In this document: one piece after another, positions 39,207-63,541 of the stretch
Layout of the letters: each line of letters starts with the position of its first letter
How positions within the stretch are numbered: the stretch's first letter is position 1
Position numbers and translations under genes: made by a program
From: Enterobacteria phage vB_EcoM_IME341
Sequence record: MH051917
Direction: 5' to 3' (one strand)
DNA length: 64,000 bases
Notes under the pieces: model-generated
Database searches by the model: none
What the model saw: the letters and a program-made list of their open reading frames with translations, nothing else
What the model was told of the DNA's origin: nothing

Positions 39207-39246
39207 GTTTACAAGGTCTATAGGCATGATACTATAGACCTATCAA
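39207..39246 (+). promoter_or_regulatory. early promoter cassette with 10-bp inverted repeat flanking the -10
   Basis: GTTTAC 39207-12; TACTAT 39230-35; AGGTCTATAG 39214-23 pairs CTATAGACCT 39232-41. Confidence 0.7.
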
Positions 39247-39272
39247 AACAAACTAACCAAACGGAAATCAAA

Positions 39273-39774: not shown

Positions 39775-39816
39775 GTTTACAACGGGCTCTAGTGATGGTA
39801 CTATAGCCCTATCAAA
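39775..39816 (+). promoter_or_regulatory. early promoter cassette with compensated inverted repeat
   Basis: GTTTAC 39775-80; TACTAT 39799-804; GGGCTCTAG vs CTATAGCCC. Confidence 0.65.
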
Positions 39817-39840
39817 ACAAATGAGTGATTGGAGAATAAA

Positions 39841-41242: not shown

Positions 41243-41319
41243 GGCCCTGTAGCTCAATGGTTAGCAGCAGTCCCCTCATAAGGGAAAGGTTACCAGTTCA
41301 AATCTGGTCTGGGTCACCA
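41243..41319 (+). tRNA. tRNA with CAT anticodon (Met, or Ile2 if lysidine-modified)
   Basis: cloverleaf folded by hand: T-arm ACCAG-TTCAAAT-CTGGT, anticodon loop CTCATAA, 3' CCA encoded; one acceptor mismatch. Confidence 0.65.
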
Positions 41320-41387: not shown

Positions 41388-42047
41388 ATGCTTTGCCAAT
41401 ATTGTTCTAAAGAATGTAAAAACTTAAATTCACTAAAGCAACATGAAAAACGGTGCAAATCTAACCCAAATGGATTAGATATGAGCGGCCCTAATAACCC
41501 TCGTTTCGGTCTTAAAGGTGTCAATCAATTTACAAAAGCCAAAGAACTAGGTAAAGAAATAAAGGTTTCTGATAAAACCAGAGAAAAACTTAGAAAAGCC
41601 AATACAGGATATGTATGGTCTAATGAACGCAAAGAAGCACATTCTAAAAGAATGCGGCAAGCTGTTCTTGATAATCCTGATTCATATTCTGCTTCTAATG
41701 TTTCTGGTCGAGTAAAAACATATGAGTTTGACGGATTTAAATTTAAAGGGACTTGGGAATTAAAAGTTGCTAAGTTTTTAAAAGAACACAATATCAAATA
41801 TACTAATGAAATAAAGCCAATTCCTTACGAATGGGAAGGTTCAGAACATCTCTATTTTCCTGATTTTTATTTACCCACTTATGATTTTTATATAGAAGTC
41901 AAAGGATATAAAAGAGATAGAGACCTTTGTAAATGGAAAGCTTTAGAAAATTTGATAGTTTTAGAAAAAGATGAGATTTCCGATTTGTCTTGTCTTTTAA
42001 ATAAATTACGTCCCGCTGGTGTAATGGATAGCATACGATCCTTCTAA
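41388..42047 (+). CDS. free-standing homing-endonuclease-like protein: CxxC...HxxxxC zinc finger, NUMOD-like linker, PD-(D/E)xK domain related to gp4
   Basis: ATG 41388 after GGAGA; C-terminal YFPDFYLPTYDFYIEVKG parallels gp4 YFMDF...FEVK; lies in tRNA cluster like T4 segB. Confidence 0.55.
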   Translation: MLCQYCSKECKNLNSLKQHEKRCKSNPNGLDMSGPNNPRFGLKGVNQFTKAKELGKEIKVSDKTREKLRKANTGYVWSNERKEAHSKRMRQAVLDNPDSYSASNVSGRVKTYEFDGFKFKGTWELKVAKFLKEHNIKYTNEIKPIPYEWEGSEHLYFPDFYLPTYDFYIEVKGYKRDRDLCKWKALENLIVLEKDEISDLSCLLNKLRPAGVMDSIRSF

Positions 42048-42084
42048 GTTTGCGGTCCTGGTTCGATCCCAGGGCGGGATACCA
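42010..42084 (+). tRNA. tRNA-Arg (TCT anticodon)
   Basis: acceptor GTCCCGC/GCGGGAT, T-arm CCTGG-TTCGATC-CCAGG, anticodon loop CTTCTAA, CCA encoded; overlaps 3' end of the preceding ORF. Confidence 0.7.
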
Positions 42085-43014: not shown

Positions 43015-43053
43015 GTTTACACCTCCTTTAAACATGATACTATAGACCTATCA
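43015..43053 (+). promoter_or_regulatory. early promoter cassette; spacer CCTCCTT complementary to downstream SD
   Basis: GTTTAC 43015-20; TACTAT 43038-43; SD AAGGAGA 43067-73. Confidence 0.65.
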
Positions 43054-43078
43054 AAACAACAGAGTGAAGGAGAGTAAA

Positions 43079-43342
43079 ATGGATAATTATGGTGAATTGT
43101 TTAATTTCTTTATGAAATGCGTTCCTGAAGAATTTGGTGCTACTGTTAACGATATTAAGGTTATAGGTGACGACCATCCTATATTTGAAACGTATGCAGT
43201 AATGGGTAATGATGATGGCCAGTGGTATACCGTAAAGGTTGTGGTTAATATGTTTGCCGCCGAAGGTTATGTTAAATTGTCTACCAAAGTTTATCATGAT
43301 AACGATTTTGATGCGGAAGAGTATTTCAATAATATGAAATAA
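43079..43342 (+). CDS. hypothetical protein
   Basis: ATG 43079 after AAGGAGAG. Confidence 0.5.
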   Translation: MDNYGELFNFFMKCVPEEFGATVNDIKVIGDDHPIFETYAVMGNDDGQWYTVKVVVNMFAAEGYVKLSTKVYHDNDFDAEEYFNNMK

Positions 43343-45058: not shown

Positions 45059-45398
45059 TCTTTCATCACATGTTTATCAATTGGCTGAATATGATATTGC
45101 TATTTCCTTATTTATGGGAATTGTCACCGGTATGCTAGGAGGTTTGGTTGGTCTGGTAATGACCACGGTTATGGCGGCAATCGAAGGAGTCACGCCTATT
45201 GAGATGGGTTTTTATATGATAATCGCTCCGGCTGTCGTGGCTTATTTTATCCCTGTTGTGTATGATATTTGCCATACAAACGCTTTGAATGCTCCCATCC
45301 GTAAGAGATATGCTTTAGAGATGGCTAATTATAATGAGCATGTAAAACAAACTAAACGTAATGACCTTGAAATCTTTATTAAGGAATGTAAATCATGA
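45045..45398 (+). CDS. small membrane protein, C-terminal ...EIFIKECKS
   Basis: two TM segments; coupled to next gene. Confidence 0.5.
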   Translation: MERPSLSSHVYQLAEYDIAISLFMGIVTGMLGGLVGLVMTTVMAAIEGVTPIEMGFYMIIAPAVVAYFIPVVYDICHTNALNAPIRKRYALEMANYNEHVKQTKRNDLEIFIKECKS

Positions 45399-48492: not shown

Positions 48493-48532
48493 GTTTACAA
48501 GGTCTATAGGCATGATACTATAGACCTATCAA
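48493..48532 (+). promoter_or_regulatory. early promoter cassette, 45-bp identical copy of 39207
   Basis: identical GTTTACAAGGTCTATAGGCATGATACTATAGACCTATCAAAACAA. Confidence 0.7.
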
Positions 48533-48558
48533 AACAACAGAGTGAAATGGAGAATAAA

Positions 48559-51550: not shown

Positions 51551-51580
51551 GTTTACTTTTACAATAGCTGTGATATAGTG
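51551..51580 (+). promoter_or_regulatory. early promoter (GTTTAC, 17 bp, TATAGT)
   Basis: upstream of denV. Confidence 0.5.
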
Positions 51581-51608
51581 TTCTCACACAAACATGGAGA
51601 ACACTAAA

Positions 51609-52025
51609 ATGACTCGTATTAACCTTACCTTAGTATCTGAATTGGCCGACCAACACTTAATGGCTGAATATCGCGAATTACCACGTGTTTTCGGTGCAGT
51701 TCGTAAGCATGTTGCTAATGGTAAACGTGTTCGTGATTTTAAAATTAGCTCTACTTTTATCCTTGGTACCGGCCATGTTACTTTCTTTTATGATAAGCTT
51801 GAATTTTTACGTAAACGTCAAATCGAGCTTATAGCCGAATGTTTAAAACGTGGTTTTAATATCAAGGACACTACGGTCCAAGACATTAGTGATATTCCTC
51901 AGGAATTCCGTGGTGACTATACTCCACACGAAGCTTCTATTGCTATATCTCAGGCCCGTTTGGACGAAAAAATTGCACAGCGTCCTACCTGGTACAAACA
52001 TTATGGCAAGGCTATTTACGCTTAA
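51609..52025 (+). CDS. denV: endonuclease V (pyrimidine-dimer DNA glycosylase)
   Basis: 138 aa, near-identical to recalled T4 DenV ([47 protein letters not shown]...). Confidence 0.95.
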
Positions 52026-53055: not shown

Positions 53056-53348
53056 TGACTGATGAAGAACTTTTTGAGTTCTGTTATTTCTCACGTAAGG
53101 TTCGAAGAGAGGACCTTACCGCGAATTTTGAATATGCTTATTTTTACCCACTAGAATACGTGTTCATGACAGGGCCCTTTAAGGGCTCTCGTTTTAGATG
53201 TCATGCCCCAAGCATCCGATTAATGAAACAGGTTCCTTACTTTACCCTCGAGTTCATCTCAGGGCCTTGTAAGGGTATTATTACTCGCAGTCTCTTAACT
53301 TATGACCAAGAGATTCATATGATTTCTGACTGGAAGAAATATGTCTAA
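53052..53348 (+). CDS. hypothetical protein
   Basis: ATGA-coupled ORF. Confidence 0.45.
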   Translation: MMTDEELFEFCYFSRKVRREDLTANFEYAYFYPLEYVFMTGPFKGSRFRCHAPSIRLMKQVPYFTLEFISGPCKGIITRSLLTYDQEIHMISDWKKYV

Positions 53349-53559: not shown

Positions 53560-53834
53560 TTGAAGATATTAAGGGTTACAAACCACATACCGACGACAAA
53601 ATCAGTAAAGTGAACGCGATTAAAGATGCTGAAGTTCGATTAGGGTTAATCTTTAAAGCCTTGGAAGAAGAATATGTTGAAGCCTTTACATGCTCGGGTG
53701 TTGACAAAATGAGTGATGAAGAATTCAACCTCACCCATGAACGCCTAGCCCAGATTCGTACGGCAATCGAACGCTTGAAAGAAGCAAGCATGTGGGCGTG
53801 TCGTTCCGTTTTCCAGCCCGAGGAAAAATACTGA
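53556..53834 (+). CDS. hypothetical protein
   Basis: 92-aa ORF after GAGGAAG. Confidence 0.45.
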   Translation: MIEDIKGYKPHTDDKISKVNAIKDAEVRLGLIFKALEEEYVEAFTCSGVDKMSDEEFNLTHERLAQIRTAIERLKEASMWACRSVFQPEEKY

Positions 53835-54043
53835 TGAAAATTGAAAGTTTACAAGATTTCCAGCGTATCATTGGTGAAGCCTGTACCGGCTACCACAAAT
53901 ACTTGCTTGACGACCAAATGGCTTGTCTCGAAGAAGGTGAAGTACAGTATGCAGCCCAACGCCTTGAACAAGTGAAAGAGTTTTATCCTGTATTGGTAGA
54001 AATTTGTTCAGCTGCTGGAAAACTTACCCCATTCCAAGAATAA
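53834..54043 (+). CDS. hypothetical protein
   Basis: ATG 53834 after GAGGAAAAA. Confidence 0.45.
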   Translation: MKIESLQDFQRIIGEACTGYHKYLLDDQMACLEEGEVQYAAQRLEQVKEFYPVLVEICSAAGKLTPFQE

Positions 54044-54047
54044 AGCA

Positions 54048-54096
54048 GTTTACATCTCCTGTAGACATGATACTATAAACCTATCAACTACAGGAG
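54048..54096 (+). promoter_or_regulatory. early promoter cassette; spacer CTCCTGTAG pairs with SD-containing CTACAGGAG
   Basis: GTTTAC 54048-53; TACTAT 54071-76; arms 54056-64 and 54088-96. Confidence 0.7.
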
Positions 54097-54104
54097 ATTA
54101 CAAA

Positions 54105-54563
54105 ATGTCAGAAATTAATTCAGAAGTATTCATCCGCCGCAACAAATTACGTCGTCAGTTCGAAACCGAATTCCGTGAACTGAATGCGTCCATCAAAAAA
54201 GCCGCCATTAAGAGCGGTGTCCCAGCCTTCTTTATTAAGTACTCTAATCACTTGTTGGACCGTGCTATCCAACGTGAAATCGACGAAAAATACGTTTTTG
54301 CTTTATTCAAGCAACTCCATAACCATGTTAAAGAAATCCACGAATTCTTAATCCAGGAACCTCTGCCTGATGTAGAATCCGAAATTGTCCCTGGTAAAGT
54401 GTATCGTCCATTGCGTCTCGAAATTACCGATAAAACCTTATGGCTAGGTATGACAGTAGACCGTAAACATCCTGATAAAGGATATTCCCTTAAATGTCGT
54501 ATGGCATTTGTTAACTCTAAACGTTTAGAAGGTAAAACCAGCACTAAAGTAATCTATCTTTAA
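54105..54563 (+). CDS. hypothetical protein
   Basis: 152-aa ORF. Confidence 0.5.
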   Translation: MSEINSEVFIRRNKLRRQFETEFRELNASIKKAAIKSGVPAFFIKYSNHLLDRAIQREIDEKYVFALFKQLHNHVKEIHEFLIQEPLPDVESEIVPGKVYRPLRLEITDKTLWLGMTVDRKHPDKGYSLKCRMAFVNSKRLEGKTSTKVIYL

Positions 54564-57926: not shown

Positions 57927-57931
57927 TCAAA

Positions 57932-57957
57932 GGTCTCACTTCGGTGGGACCTTTTTT
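57932..57957 (+). terminator. intrinsic terminator
   Basis: GGTCTCAC-TTCG-GTGGGACC + T6. Confidence 0.75.
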
Positions 57958-57966
57958 CGTTTAGGT

Positions 57967-58016
57967 GTTTACATCCTCTAGGAACATGATACTATAGACC
58001 TATCAACTAATGAGGA
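57967..58016 (+). promoter_or_regulatory. early promoter cassette
   Basis: GTTTAC 57967-72; TACTAT 57990-95; spacer TCCTC vs SD GAGGA. Confidence 0.65.
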
Positions 58017-58023
58017 AAACAGT

Positions 58024-58260
58024 ATGAAACTTACAAGTACTACGGTTTCATTAGAATATGAAATCAACGGTCGTATCCTTGAGATTAAGATATTCGACGA
58101 CCGAAGTATCTTTGCCGATTATCGAGGATACAGAATTCGTCTGGAAAAGGACGAGCTCAAGGAACCGTGGCTCCTTAAAGACACATTAAAGGGTTGTGGG
58201 TGTAAACTGAAAACCACCCAAGCCCAAGAATTAATTTCTACTATCAACAAATACTGGTGA
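58024..58260 (+). CDS. hypothetical protein
   Basis: 78-aa ORF. Confidence 0.5.
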   Translation: MKLTSTTVSLEYEINGRILEIKIFDDRSIFADYRGYRIRLEKDELKEPWLLKDTLKGCGCKLKTTQAQELISTINKYW

Positions 58261-58960: not shown

Positions 58961-59521
58961 ATGATTATTGAAACATCTGGGTTGTTTGGTGACCTGACCG
59001 CTGAAGTAGTTGATAATGCAATTGTGCTTTCACAAGAAGACGATAAAATCGTACTGACTATCCAAGATATCAAACCACTTTACGATTTAAAGGTTTTGGA
59101 CAAACACCAATATCTTAATGGTAGTTTTAGAGGTGTATTTAATATTAACGATGATATGTGGGCCCAGATTTATAACCATGACAACGGGTTTAATTTGGAA
59201 ACGGATAGGGAATGTCTAAGCATTAGTGATTCTGCTAATTTCTTTAAATGTATTTTTAAACTGTTCCAGGAAGAATGTAAGCCAGAAGTCGAATGGAAAG
59301 TCCCTGGCCAAGATGCGGTGATTCGTTCTAGTGAAACCTTTGAGGGTGACGAAGAAGAACTGGATTATGACACCGAATTGTCCGTGTATCAACACCAGGG
59401 TCGTGATTTGCTATCCTTGACCCAAAGACATGACGGTGAAAATGAAGTGGTATTTACTAAGGACGAGCTCAAGGCTTTAGTCTCTTATCTGAACTCTGTT
59501 ATCCCAACTATGAACTCTTAA
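58961..59521 (+). CDS. hypothetical acidic protein
   Basis: 186-aa ORF after GAGGAA. Confidence 0.5.
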   Translation: MIIETSGLFGDLTAEVVDNAIVLSQEDDKIVLTIQDIKPLYDLKVLDKHQYLNGSFRGVFNINDDMWAQIYNHDNGFNLETDRECLSISDSANFFKCIFKLFQEECKPEVEWKVPGQDAVIRSSETFEGDEEELDYDTELSVYQHQGRDLLSLTQRHDGENEVVFTKDELKALVSYLNSVIPTMNS

Positions 59522-60990: not shown

Positions 60991-61186
60991 AGAAGAAATT
61001 AACGTCTTTCTATCGTATGGAAGACCTCATAAAACTCGACGTTGGTATCTTGAAGCCGTCTGTAAAGAAACCGGACGTCGAGTCAATATCAAGTACGCAT
61101 GCAAACCTACGCCTAAACAGACAAGACGATTTGTTAACTGGGCTATAAATGATATCCGCTTCTATAATTTTTGGAGCGCAATTTAG
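60947..61186 (+). CDS. possible small basic protein; start uncertain
   Basis: ORF overlaps the 3' end of the preceding gene by 44 nt, no internal ATG. Confidence 0.25.
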   Translation: MKRCTLTTTTLITAKEEINVFLSYGRPHKTRRWYLEAVCKETGRRVNIKYACKPTPKQTRRFVNWAINDIRFYNFWSAI

Positions 61187-61207
61187 GAACCTTCGGGTTC
61201 CTTTTTT
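61186..61207 (+). terminator. intrinsic terminator
   Basis: GGAACC-TTCG-GGTTCC + T6. Confidence 0.75.
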
Positions 61208-61226
61208 GGGTTTAGTGCAAAAAGGT

Positions 61227-61266
61227 GTTTACAACCTCGTAGAGCATGATACTATAGACCTATCAA
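61227..61266 (+). promoter_or_regulatory. early promoter cassette
   Basis: GTTTAC 61227-32; TACTAT 61250-55; TAGACCTATCAA. Confidence 0.65.
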
Positions 61267-62961: not shown

Positions 62962-63010
62962 GTTTACATCTCCAGTAGAAATGATACTATAGACCTATCA
63001 ACTACTGGAG
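62962..63010 (+). promoter_or_regulatory. early promoter cassette; spacer CTCCAGTAG pairs with SD-containing CTACTGGAG
   Basis: GTTTAC 62962-67; TACTAT 62985-90; arms 62970-78 and 63002-10. Confidence 0.7.
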
Positions 63011-63016
63011 GTTATC

Positions 63017-63541
63017 ATGAACGCTAAAGATATTTTTTCACTGATTAATTTCAACAACGGTAATTTCAAATCTGAAAAACAAAGCAAGTTCTTTAACGAC
63101 GTTGCTTGTGGTAATGAGATTACCGTATCTGGAGGAGAGATTTACAAAAGCCGTTGGAACTGGATTGCTATCATCGATTCAGTTGGTATTGTAGAGCTCT
63201 ATAAAAACACTAACAAAAAACGTATTCTTTACTGGAGTCGTGAAAACAATCAAGCTTATCAAGCTGAACGTAACAAACGTTTAATGCCTACTGAATCTGA
63301 CCTGGCAAACGTTAAATCTGATATCGCTTATTTCGATAATCTGATTGCCGAACAACAAGCAGTTATTGATAAGTTTGACGAAATCAAAGCTTGTAAAGAG
63401 ATTCCTGAATTCATGCGGGAATCAGTAAACGAACAGTACGCCCTCACTTCAGGTCGTATCGAGCAGTACAAATCACAACGAGCTGAACGCCAAGCTCTGC
63501 TTCAGAAATTTGAAGAGCGTTTAAAGACGGTTCTCGCATAA
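63017..63541 (+). CDS. hypothetical coiled-coil protein
   Basis: 174-aa ORF after GGAGG. Confidence 0.5.
   Translation: MNAKDIFSLINFNNGNFKSEKQSKFFNDVACGNEITVSGGEIYKSRWNWIAIIDSVGIVELYKNTNKKRILYWSRENNQAYQAERNKRLMPTESDLANVKSDIAYFDNLIAEQQAVIDKFDEIKACKEIPEFMRESVNEQYALTSGRIEQYKSQRAERQALLQKFEERLKTVLA

Follow-up and report, generated by a model that had tools for sequence, protein, structure and literature searches.

Several genes of bacteriophage T4 are known to carry hairpins over their ribosome-binding regions. In e, soc, 49 and I-TevI, a late promoter lies inside such a hairpin, and for e the effect is 100-fold (PMC3014915). Hairpins over the Shine-Dalgarno (SD) sequence are also found at the homing endonuclease genes Aeh1 mobE, T4 segB, I-TevII and I-TevIII, which are mobile genes with late or middle promoters (PMC3014915). 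Early promoters of T4-type phages have been linked to another element, the PeSL, in which stem-loops lie in or over the promoter (PMC2839356; PMC4122927). The endoribonuclease RegB cleaves GGAG within the SD sequences of early mRNAs, its own SD included, and T4 reviews explain the control of regB by promoter shut-off and self-cleavage only (PMC3014915). Here, we analyze a stretch of 64,000 nucleotides from Enterobacteria phage vB_EcoM_IME341 (sequence record MH051917), called the window below, in which part of the early promoter of regB is complementary to the SD region of regB itself. Comparable helices were found at denV and at the orthologue of nrdC.8. The best-supported explanation, to which we give a probability of about 0.6 on the basis of sequence and evolution, is that translation of these genes is gated by the promoter from which the transcript originates.

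Comparison with described hairpins

The window hairpins resemble those of e, soc, 49 and I-TevI in two ways. The SD or the AUG lies in a helix on longer transcripts (in the window, a predicted -16 to -19 kcal/mol, which is a similar predicted energy scale), and the promoter is inside the structure, with its own transcripts lacking the 5' arm and being translated (for the window, both of these are predictions). They differ in the kind of promoter. Whereas e, soc, 49 and I-TevI use a late promoter (gp55, TATAAATA) and silence early and middle RNA, the window promoter is early (GTTTAC-N17-TACTAT plus TG), the 5' arm is in the spacer or discriminator, and the proposed timing is reversed, with expression early only and silence afterward. 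Since the internal promoter is early and not late, the window hairpins are a variant of this type and not a member of it. A first-pass annotation of this DNA had compared the locus to T4 e and soc, with the mechanism applied to early genes. The genes regB, denV and nrdC.8 are outside the published list of T4 genes with such hairpins (PMC3014915). The window hairpins also differ from those of the homing endonuclease genes, as they belong to early promoters of core accessory genes.

With the PeSL elements (Arbiol 2010, PMC2839356; Comeau 2014, PMC4122927), the window shares a repeated sigma-70-like early promoter with A/T-rich sequence upstream, followed by the SD and ATG of a small ORF (14 copies in the window), stem-loops that enclose the -10 (at 39207, 39775, 48493, 51551, 54048 and 62962), and the modular exchange of cassettes, the regB cassette of the window being similar to that of T4 denV. 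In contrast, the PeSL stem-loops have been read as sites of termination or attenuation and of recombination, and pairing with the SD, covariation and translation are undescribed for them. The words "sequester" and "translation" are absent from the text of Arbiol 2010 (PMC2839356), and in the T4/PST pair the stem-loops are drawn upstream of the promoter.

The regB helix has the same GGAG and the same leader as its target as does RegB autoregulation, by which regB output is tightly limited (PMC3014915). Autoregulation is an enzymatic cut on a free SD, whereas the helix would be a second, cis-acting layer, proposed to spare long transcripts both translation and cleavage. No early-promoter anti-SD is described in the T4 reviews and PeSL papers that were consulted, and the older primary literature may hold prior notice. 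The abstract of Valerie et al. from 1986 in Nucleic Acids Research (NAR) reportedly mentions potential stem-loops before ipIII, ipII, denV and tk and assigns no function to them.

Helices at early promoters of the window

By its sequence, the window belongs to a Dhakavirus, a T4-type phage like JS98 and IME08; the Dhakavirus phages C6, IME08 and JS10 matched a 3-kb query from the region of the regB site with 94-98% identity. Its early-gene strand is the + strand. There are 8 copies of the motif GTTTACA-N13-TGATACTATA in the window, where 0.5 would be expected, and the motif agrees with the T4-pair consensus TTTACW-N17-TAYWAT (PMC4122927). Looser promoter patterns gave 14 early promoters with a conserved core, all of them on the + strand and all upstream of open reading frames (ORFs). 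Start sites of the window promoters were predicted from the position of the -10 alone, at about 7 nt after it. The features of the three strongest sites are as follows.

54048..54076, + strand: T4-type early promoter of regB (-35 GTTTAC at 54048-53; extended -10 TG at 54068-69; -10 TACTAT at 54071-76; predicted start about 54083)
54054..54064, + strand: regB 5' arm (anti-SD), ATCTCCTGTAG, inside the promoter spacer; pairs with 54088-98 and is outside transcripts begun at about 54083
54088..54098, + strand: regB 3' arm, CTACAGGAGAT, including the regB SD GGAG at 54093-96
54105..54563, + strand: regB (RegB endoribonuclease, 152 aa), 58% identity to T4 RegB; neighbors vs.1, vs and tk.4 as in T4
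62962..62990, + strand: early promoter of the nrdC.8 orthologue (-10 TACTAT at 62985-90; predicted start about 62997)
62968..62978, + strand: nrdC.8 orthologue 5' arm, ATCTCCAGTAG, inside the promoter spacer
63002..63012, + strand: nrdC.8 orthologue 3' arm, CTACTGGAGGT, including the SD GGAGG
63017..63541, + strand: nrdC.8 orthologue (174 aa, phrog_2274); T4 nrdC.8 (start 53885) has an analogous hairpin with other arms
51551..51579, + strand: denV early promoter (-35 GTTTAC at 51551-56; TG at 51571-72; -10 TATAGT at 51574-79; predicted start about 51586; ATG at 51609)
51576..51585, + strand: denV 5' arm, TAGTGTTCTC, overlapping the end of the -10 and the discriminator and ending just ahead of the predicted start at about 51586
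51597..51606, + strand: denV 3' arm, GAGAACACTA, overlapping the denV SD (GGAG at 51596-99)

At 54048, the first-pass annotation had reported exact complementarity between the spacer segment CTCCTGTAG (54056-64) and CTACAGGAG (54088-96). This was confirmed, and the pairing extends further, to 11 bp. The fold of 54048-54107 has an energy of -18.9 kcal/mol and a z-score of -6.4, and none of 200 shuffles was as good. The hairpin loop encloses the -10 TACTAT and the predicted start, and the 25-nt proximal leader is unstructured, with a fold of 0 kcal/mol. The complementarity reported at 62962 was also found, with 11 bp between the two arms, including one G.U (-18.3 kcal/mol, z-score -3.6). The helices at 54048 and 62962 are one compensated pair apart, T-A to A-T. 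A third strong case, absent from the annotation, is the denV promoter at 51551, where the fold has an energy of -16.0 kcal/mol and a z-score of -3.7. The three strong helices have 10-11 bp.

Two other sites had been listed as further examples. The pairing at 43015 is present but marginal, with 8 bp including one G.U, -10.6 kcal/mol and a z-score of -1.8 (11 of 200 shuffles as good). At 57967, the supposed masking of the SD comes down to a 5-bp CCUC/GAGG contact, which has no energetic consequence; this contact beats most shuffled spacers, and the whole fold has a z-score of -0.6.

43023..43072, + strand: marginal helix of 43015, CTCCTTTA at 43023-30 with TGAAGGAG at 43065-72; ATG at 43079
57967..58026, + strand: site of the 5-bp contact, with no predicted effect; terminator 57929-54 directly upstream

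Among the early promoters within the window, cognate pairs of spacer and ribosome site outscored permuted pairs (p = 0.002). We conclude that the pairing is real at 54048, 62962 and 51551 and not real at 57967.

Accessibility of the ribosome-binding sites

The mean unpaired probability of the SD was tried as a measure of accessibility and was uninformative, being saturated by weak alternative pairings. It was replaced by the opening cost, which is the ensemble cost of making positions -15 to +5 single-stranded, compared between the proximal transcript and read-through RNA. The opening cost of regB is 4.7 kcal/mol in the proximal transcript and 13.1 kcal/mol in read-through RNA, a rise of 8.4 kcal/mol. 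With the 5' arm complemented, the read-through cost went back to 5.1 kcal/mol, which is about baseline. The rises were 10.2 kcal/mol for denV (2.1 to 12.3 kcal/mol) and 13.1 kcal/mol for the nrdC.8 orthologue (6.3 to 19.4 kcal/mol). The cost at 43015 went from 4.7 to 8.2 kcal/mol, and that at 57967 was unchanged (6.7 vs 6.2). Moving the predicted start site by 2 nt in either direction left the result stable.

The effect was strong at 3 of the 14 early promoters of the window, and the remaining 11 shifted by at most 4 kcal/mol. It is therefore not a general property of the promoter family, and the annotation's extension of the idea to early genes applies to denV, regB and nrdC.8 but not to early genes in general. 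A set of 15 genomes gave 84 non-redundant pairs of early promoter and gene, among which the rises were bimodal; 24% of the pairs rose by at least 8 kcal/mol, compared to 3.3% when promoters were swapped between genes.

If initiation scales with unfolding energy in the usual Boltzmann manner, a rise of 8-13 kcal/mol would correspond to a tens- to hundreds-fold drop. A predicted drop of this size would be of the same order as the effect for T4 gene e (100-fold; PMC3014915).

Comparative analysis of regB

The regB locus was compared using 42 loci from IMG/VR and the loci of 8 named phages: T4, RB69, RB49, the Aeromonas phages 31, Asfd_1 and AS-gz, Yersinia phage MHG19 and Klebsiella phage Biddle_MM4. 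Most Tevenvirinae lineages, T4 and RB69 included, retain the spacer:SD helix, with arms that differ among at least 10 lineages. The T4 helix has 18 bp, its energy lying between -22 and -23 kcal/mol according to the flank included in the fold, and the helix of MHG19 has 15 bp and includes the -35. The arm pairs of other lineages (5' arm/3' arm) are listed here.

TCTCCTTTTAG/CTAAAAGGAGA
TCCTCATTTG/CAAATGAGGA
TCTCCTCTAGTTG/CAACTAGAGGAGA (RB69 type)
TTCTCCTCTTTAT/ATAAAGAGGAGAA
TCTCCTGTAAG/CTTACAGGAGA
CTCCTCTTG/CAAGAGGAG

A plain MAFFT alignment of the regB promoters placed the arms out of register and was replaced by a cognate duplex test and a core-anchored alignment. In the duplex test, the energy of each spacer was calculated with every lineage's ribosome-binding region, and the lineage's own ribosome site was the best partner in 8 of 15 lineages (permutation p <= 1e-5). 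The alignment was anchored on the CTCC and GGAG cores alone. In it, 82% of cells pair, and all slid registers drop to 40-52%. Compensatory changes were found in 9 of the 14 pairs (31 cells), a result that none of 500 shuffles reached. On this comparative evidence, selection acts on the hairpin structure in T-even phages at large, including T4.

The same comparison bears on the idea that the repeats act at the level of DNA, as a cruciform or in promoter melting, or that they are a chance by-product of a CTCC-rich spacer meeting a GGAG. The inverted repeats do flank the -10, and CTCC occurs in several spacers, so that 4 bp to any GGAG come free. However, the complementarity far exceeds the CTCC/GGAG core and covaries, with z-scores down to -6.4, and loops of at least 23 nt disfavor the extrusion of a cruciform. 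We therefore see an origin of this kind as highly improbable. The asymmetry of G.U and A.C pairs had too weak a bias and too few cases to tell selection on the sense RNA from selection on the DNA.

Some lineages have other arrangements at regB. Lineages L010-14 and L018-19 (L numbers are our labels) combine an inner spacer:discriminator helix with an outer CTCC:GGAG helix. In RB49, regB has no promoter of its own. In three Aeromonas phages, a canonical terminator immediately precedes the regB promoter, and a strong anti-SD is absent.

Predicted masking of genes in T4 and exchange of cassettes

In T4 (AF158101, 1-80 kb), a survey gave 20 pairs of early promoter and gene. The opening cost rose most at regB (13.2 kcal/mol), followed by nrdC.8 (12.7), modB (10.8), e.8 (8.4), denV (6.9) and motB.2 (6.3). 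Since nrdC.8 has its orthologue in the window at 63017, denV, regB and nrdC.8 are predicted to be masked in both phages, by different 5' arms or geometries. The 5' arm of denV is the spacer segment CTCCTGTAG in T4 and the discriminator segment GTGTTCTC in the window. The nrdC.8 helix is GTTCCTCTGTGGT/ACTACGGAGGAAC in T4 and ATCTCCAGTAG/CTACTGGAGGT in the window. Masking of denV was predicted in 9 further lineages, with rises of 6-20 kcal/mol. The effect is confined to a specific conserved subset of genes.

The ribosome-binding regions of T4 modB (start 13130), e.8 (70623) and motB.2 (8161) are predicted to be masked in read-through RNA only. The modB anti-SD lies just after the -10, pairing GATAGCTTC with GGAGGCTATC.

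The promoter-hairpin-SD cassette of window regB (54048-54098) is identical at 47 of 50 positions to the cassette of T4 denV (AF158101, start codon 65355), and the window's own denV carries a cassette other than the T4 denV type. This identity is evidence that whole cassettes are swapped as units between genes and genomes. Such exchange is also what an attenuator and recombination module of the PeSL type would give, in which the stem-loop stops or lowers incoming transcription and the cassette is a portable unit of shuffling. The RB49 and phi1 stem-loops lie between the -35 and -10 or over the -10, and one of them lowered lacZ expression to the same extent as the rrnB T1 terminator (PMC2839356). 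That reduction would be equally expected from masking of the SD or from effects on RNA, and a role in recombination explains neither the position of the 3' arm on the SD nor the covariation of the arms. The 3' arms are followed by TACAAAATG, TATCATG and AAAATG and not by the U-tract of an intrinsic terminator. Moreover, the window has separate canonical terminators elsewhere (57929-54 and 61185-202) and none at the three strong hairpins. The hairpins may nevertheless attenuate transcription by other means. A module of this type is an improbable account of the hairpins.

Possible transcription from upstream

Gating by promoter of origin supposes that RNA reaches these genes from upstream, and the region before regB was examined for terminators, promoters and ORFs.

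53792..54043, + strand: ORF upstream of regB, vs.3-like, phrog_2037; stop codon at 54041-43, 10 nt before the helix

The vs.3-like ORF ends 5 nt ahead of the -35 of the regB promoter, with no terminator between ORF and helix, and transcripts that cover it must read into regB. A terminator scan found none upstream of 54048, 62962 or 51551. The closest + strand early promoter upstream of regB is at 52015, and a consensus-level candidate for a MotA box is at 53135-53157 (+), with further candidates at 45311-45335 and 59025-59049. The MotA-box pattern TGCTT-N12-TAnnnT has 24 matches in the window, compared to 13.9 expected. The 52015 promoter and the 53135 candidate would both feed read-through RNA into regB.

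Canonical terminators, each a hairpin and a T-run, precede the early promoters at 57967 (57929-54) and 61227 (61185-202), and no spacer:SD pairing was found at 61227. The segments 57929-57996 and 61185-61256 are composite cassettes with the terminator immediately before the early promoter. In the segment 42960-43044, a GC-rich hairpin and T-run resembling a terminator likewise come immediately before the 43015 promoter; they were recognized by eye alone and missed by the scan. Across all genomes, effects were smaller at promoters with a detected upstream terminator (Mann-Whitney p = 0.02). By threshold, the association was not significant in Fisher's test (p = 0.33), with a detector that missed the hairpin seen by eye before 43015.

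The position of the upstream ORFs suggests another explanation, translational coupling, in which translation of regB and nrdC.8 from long transcripts would depend on ribosomes that finish the upstream ORF and open the base of the helix (CTCC:GGAG). The upstream stops are 8-10 nt before the helix at both genes, in several lineages the upstream stop overlaps the -35, as in TAGTTTAC, and the anti-SD forms the helix base. However, tight gene packing alone would give a short distance from stop to promoter, and the usual footprint of a ribosome unwinds about 5-6 nt past the stop, which would fall short of the helix at 54054. The 5' arm of denV is 28 nt past the upstream stop, beyond the reach of a terminating ribosome. 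Coupling is decidedly improbable as the explanation of these helices.

Proposed mechanism

In gating by promoter of origin, a subset of the sigma-70 early promoters would double as the 5' arm of a hairpin whose 3' arm is the SD region of the next gene. The 5' arm would be encoded where the promoter tolerates change, in the spacer or the discriminator. Polymerase at the proximal promoter would start within the loop, about 7 nt after the -10, and make a leader of about 22 nt with a free SD. Polymerase coming from upstream, the occurrence and amount of which we infer, would copy both arms, and the hairpin of -16 to -19 kcal/mol would form once the 3' arm emerges and bury the SD. The source of read-through may be preceding early promoters or, at later stages of infection, middle promoters. 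In T4, early promoters cease to be active 2-3 min after infection (PMC3014915). Translation of denV, regB and nrdC.8 would be tied to the firing of their own early promoters, which would give a brief pulse of protein despite continued longer transcripts.

RegB is blocked by RNA structure, and the regB helix should therefore also protect its GGAG from RegB, a consequence of masking that the first-pass annotation left out. Autocontrol would then act on proximal transcripts only. With the GGAG hidden, genes farther downstream would keep an intact message on long transcripts.

Shielding from RegB, or stabilization of the RNA, could instead be the main function, with GGAG hidden in long polycistronic RNA and silencing as a by-product. 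The helix might also bar decay. Short early transcripts would be destroyed, and expression of downstream genes such as vs.1, vs and tk would continue. RegB cuts the GGAG of SD sequences, including its own, and is readily inhibited by secondary structure, and most middle transcripts are resistant to it (PMC3014915; PMC1702504). Every strong helix buries a GGAG. In addition, some hairpins, which we call type B, enclose the -10 and pair the spacer with the discriminator and not the SD, and these fit a general role in stability or processing. Against this, the GGAG of T4 denV appears to be cut poorly by RegB even in the absence of structure, to judge from its use as a comparison substrate in Durand 2006 (PMC1702504), and denV is nonetheless predicted to be masked in nearly every lineage. 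The helices also regularly span the whole SD and its 5' flank, beyond the GGAG. Shielding is compatible with gating, since one helix would yield both effects; as the main function, it seems unlikely.

The position of the 5' arm upstream of the predicted proximal start and the covariation across lineages support gating as the annotation had proposed it, as do the predicted masking of denV, regB and nrdC.8 in both T4 and this phage and the lack of upstream terminators at the strong sites. Two of the four sites that the annotation cited are weak or at the level of chance. Several observations weigh against gating. A terminating ribosome might open the helix base at regB and nrdC.8, where the upstream ORF stops 8-10 nt away. 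The proximal ribosome-binding regions are not wholly free, with opening costs of 4.7-6.3 kcal/mol. PeSL stem-loops in or over early promoters cut downstream reporter expression in RB49/phi1, which was read as termination (PMC2839356). Among the regB lineages compared, L023-25 and L040-41 have no spacer:SD helix at regB, and in L007-9, whose sequence is that of Klebsiella phage Biddle_MM4, the hairpin joins spacer and discriminator and the SD stays unpaired. A few strains (L055, L017, L034) have mismatches without compensation. The nrdC.8 of L052-54 has a type B hairpin, and type B hairpins are also found at the window promoters 39207, 39775 and 48493. Hairpins that enclose the -10 can thus have a role independent of the SD, and the gating hairpins may have a further or different role. 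It is mainly due to the type B hairpins that our confidence in gating stays near the value given above.

More tentatively, T-even phages may have a small, conserved set of early genes that are translated only from their own early promoters, giving an early-only pulse of potentially harmful enzymes. T4 and this phage would share denV, regB and nrdC.8, and T4 would add modB and e.8. Long middle-mode transcripts would be untranslatable at these genes and resistant to RegB, which would be a contribution in cis to the known resistance of middle transcripts. We regard this wider reading as possible rather than probable.

If gating is correct, one of the best-studied regulatory programs of phage would gain a timing device that acts in cis. 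An early promoter would carry, in positions that are minor for its strength, a silencing switch for transcripts started elsewhere. This would provide a simple reason for a short pulse of RegB, DenV and NrdC.8 inside long transcription units, and would predict which GGAG sites RegB can reach on early compared to longer RNAs. The PeSL stem-loops could then be re-read as translational elements. Since regB, denV and nrdC.8 of T4 share the design, the idea is directly testable in T4.

Other features of the window

Immediately downstream of the -10, 10 of the 14 early promoters of the window share a strongly conserved initial transcribed region, AGACCTATCAA(A/C) (for example, at 43045-43057 and 62991-63003). 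Early promoters of T4 and RB69 have related CTATCAAC motifs. Within this region, TGATA and TATCA are predicted to form a small inner helix.

Two of the type B hairpins are in identical cassettes (39207-39250 and 48493-48536), where the spacer segment AGGTCTATAG pairs with CTATAGACCT, a stretch that covers the -10 and discriminator; the energies are -16.8 and -16.5 kcal/mol, and the SD is untouched. The type B hairpin at 39775-39818 is a compensated variant, in which GGGCT.TAGT pairs with ACTATAGCCC and the SD is untouched.

A search of the whole window against Rfam at the gathering score found no family that matches the hairpins, and the sole matches were 2 tRNA genes, at 41243-41316 and 42010-42081 (+). 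The IME08 record gives three tRNAs (Met, Asn and Arg) in the corresponding region. Gene starts of the IME08 RefSeq record (NC_014260.1, our L001) were considered as a control and were unusable, as many annotated starts are not start codons; many coding sequences begin with ATA, ATT or CTG (for example, at loci 12987 and 21697). In this record, the annotated start of regB lies 93 nt before its real ATG, within the promoter region, and that of nrdC.8 is 20 nt too far upstream. Such starts look like annotation errors.

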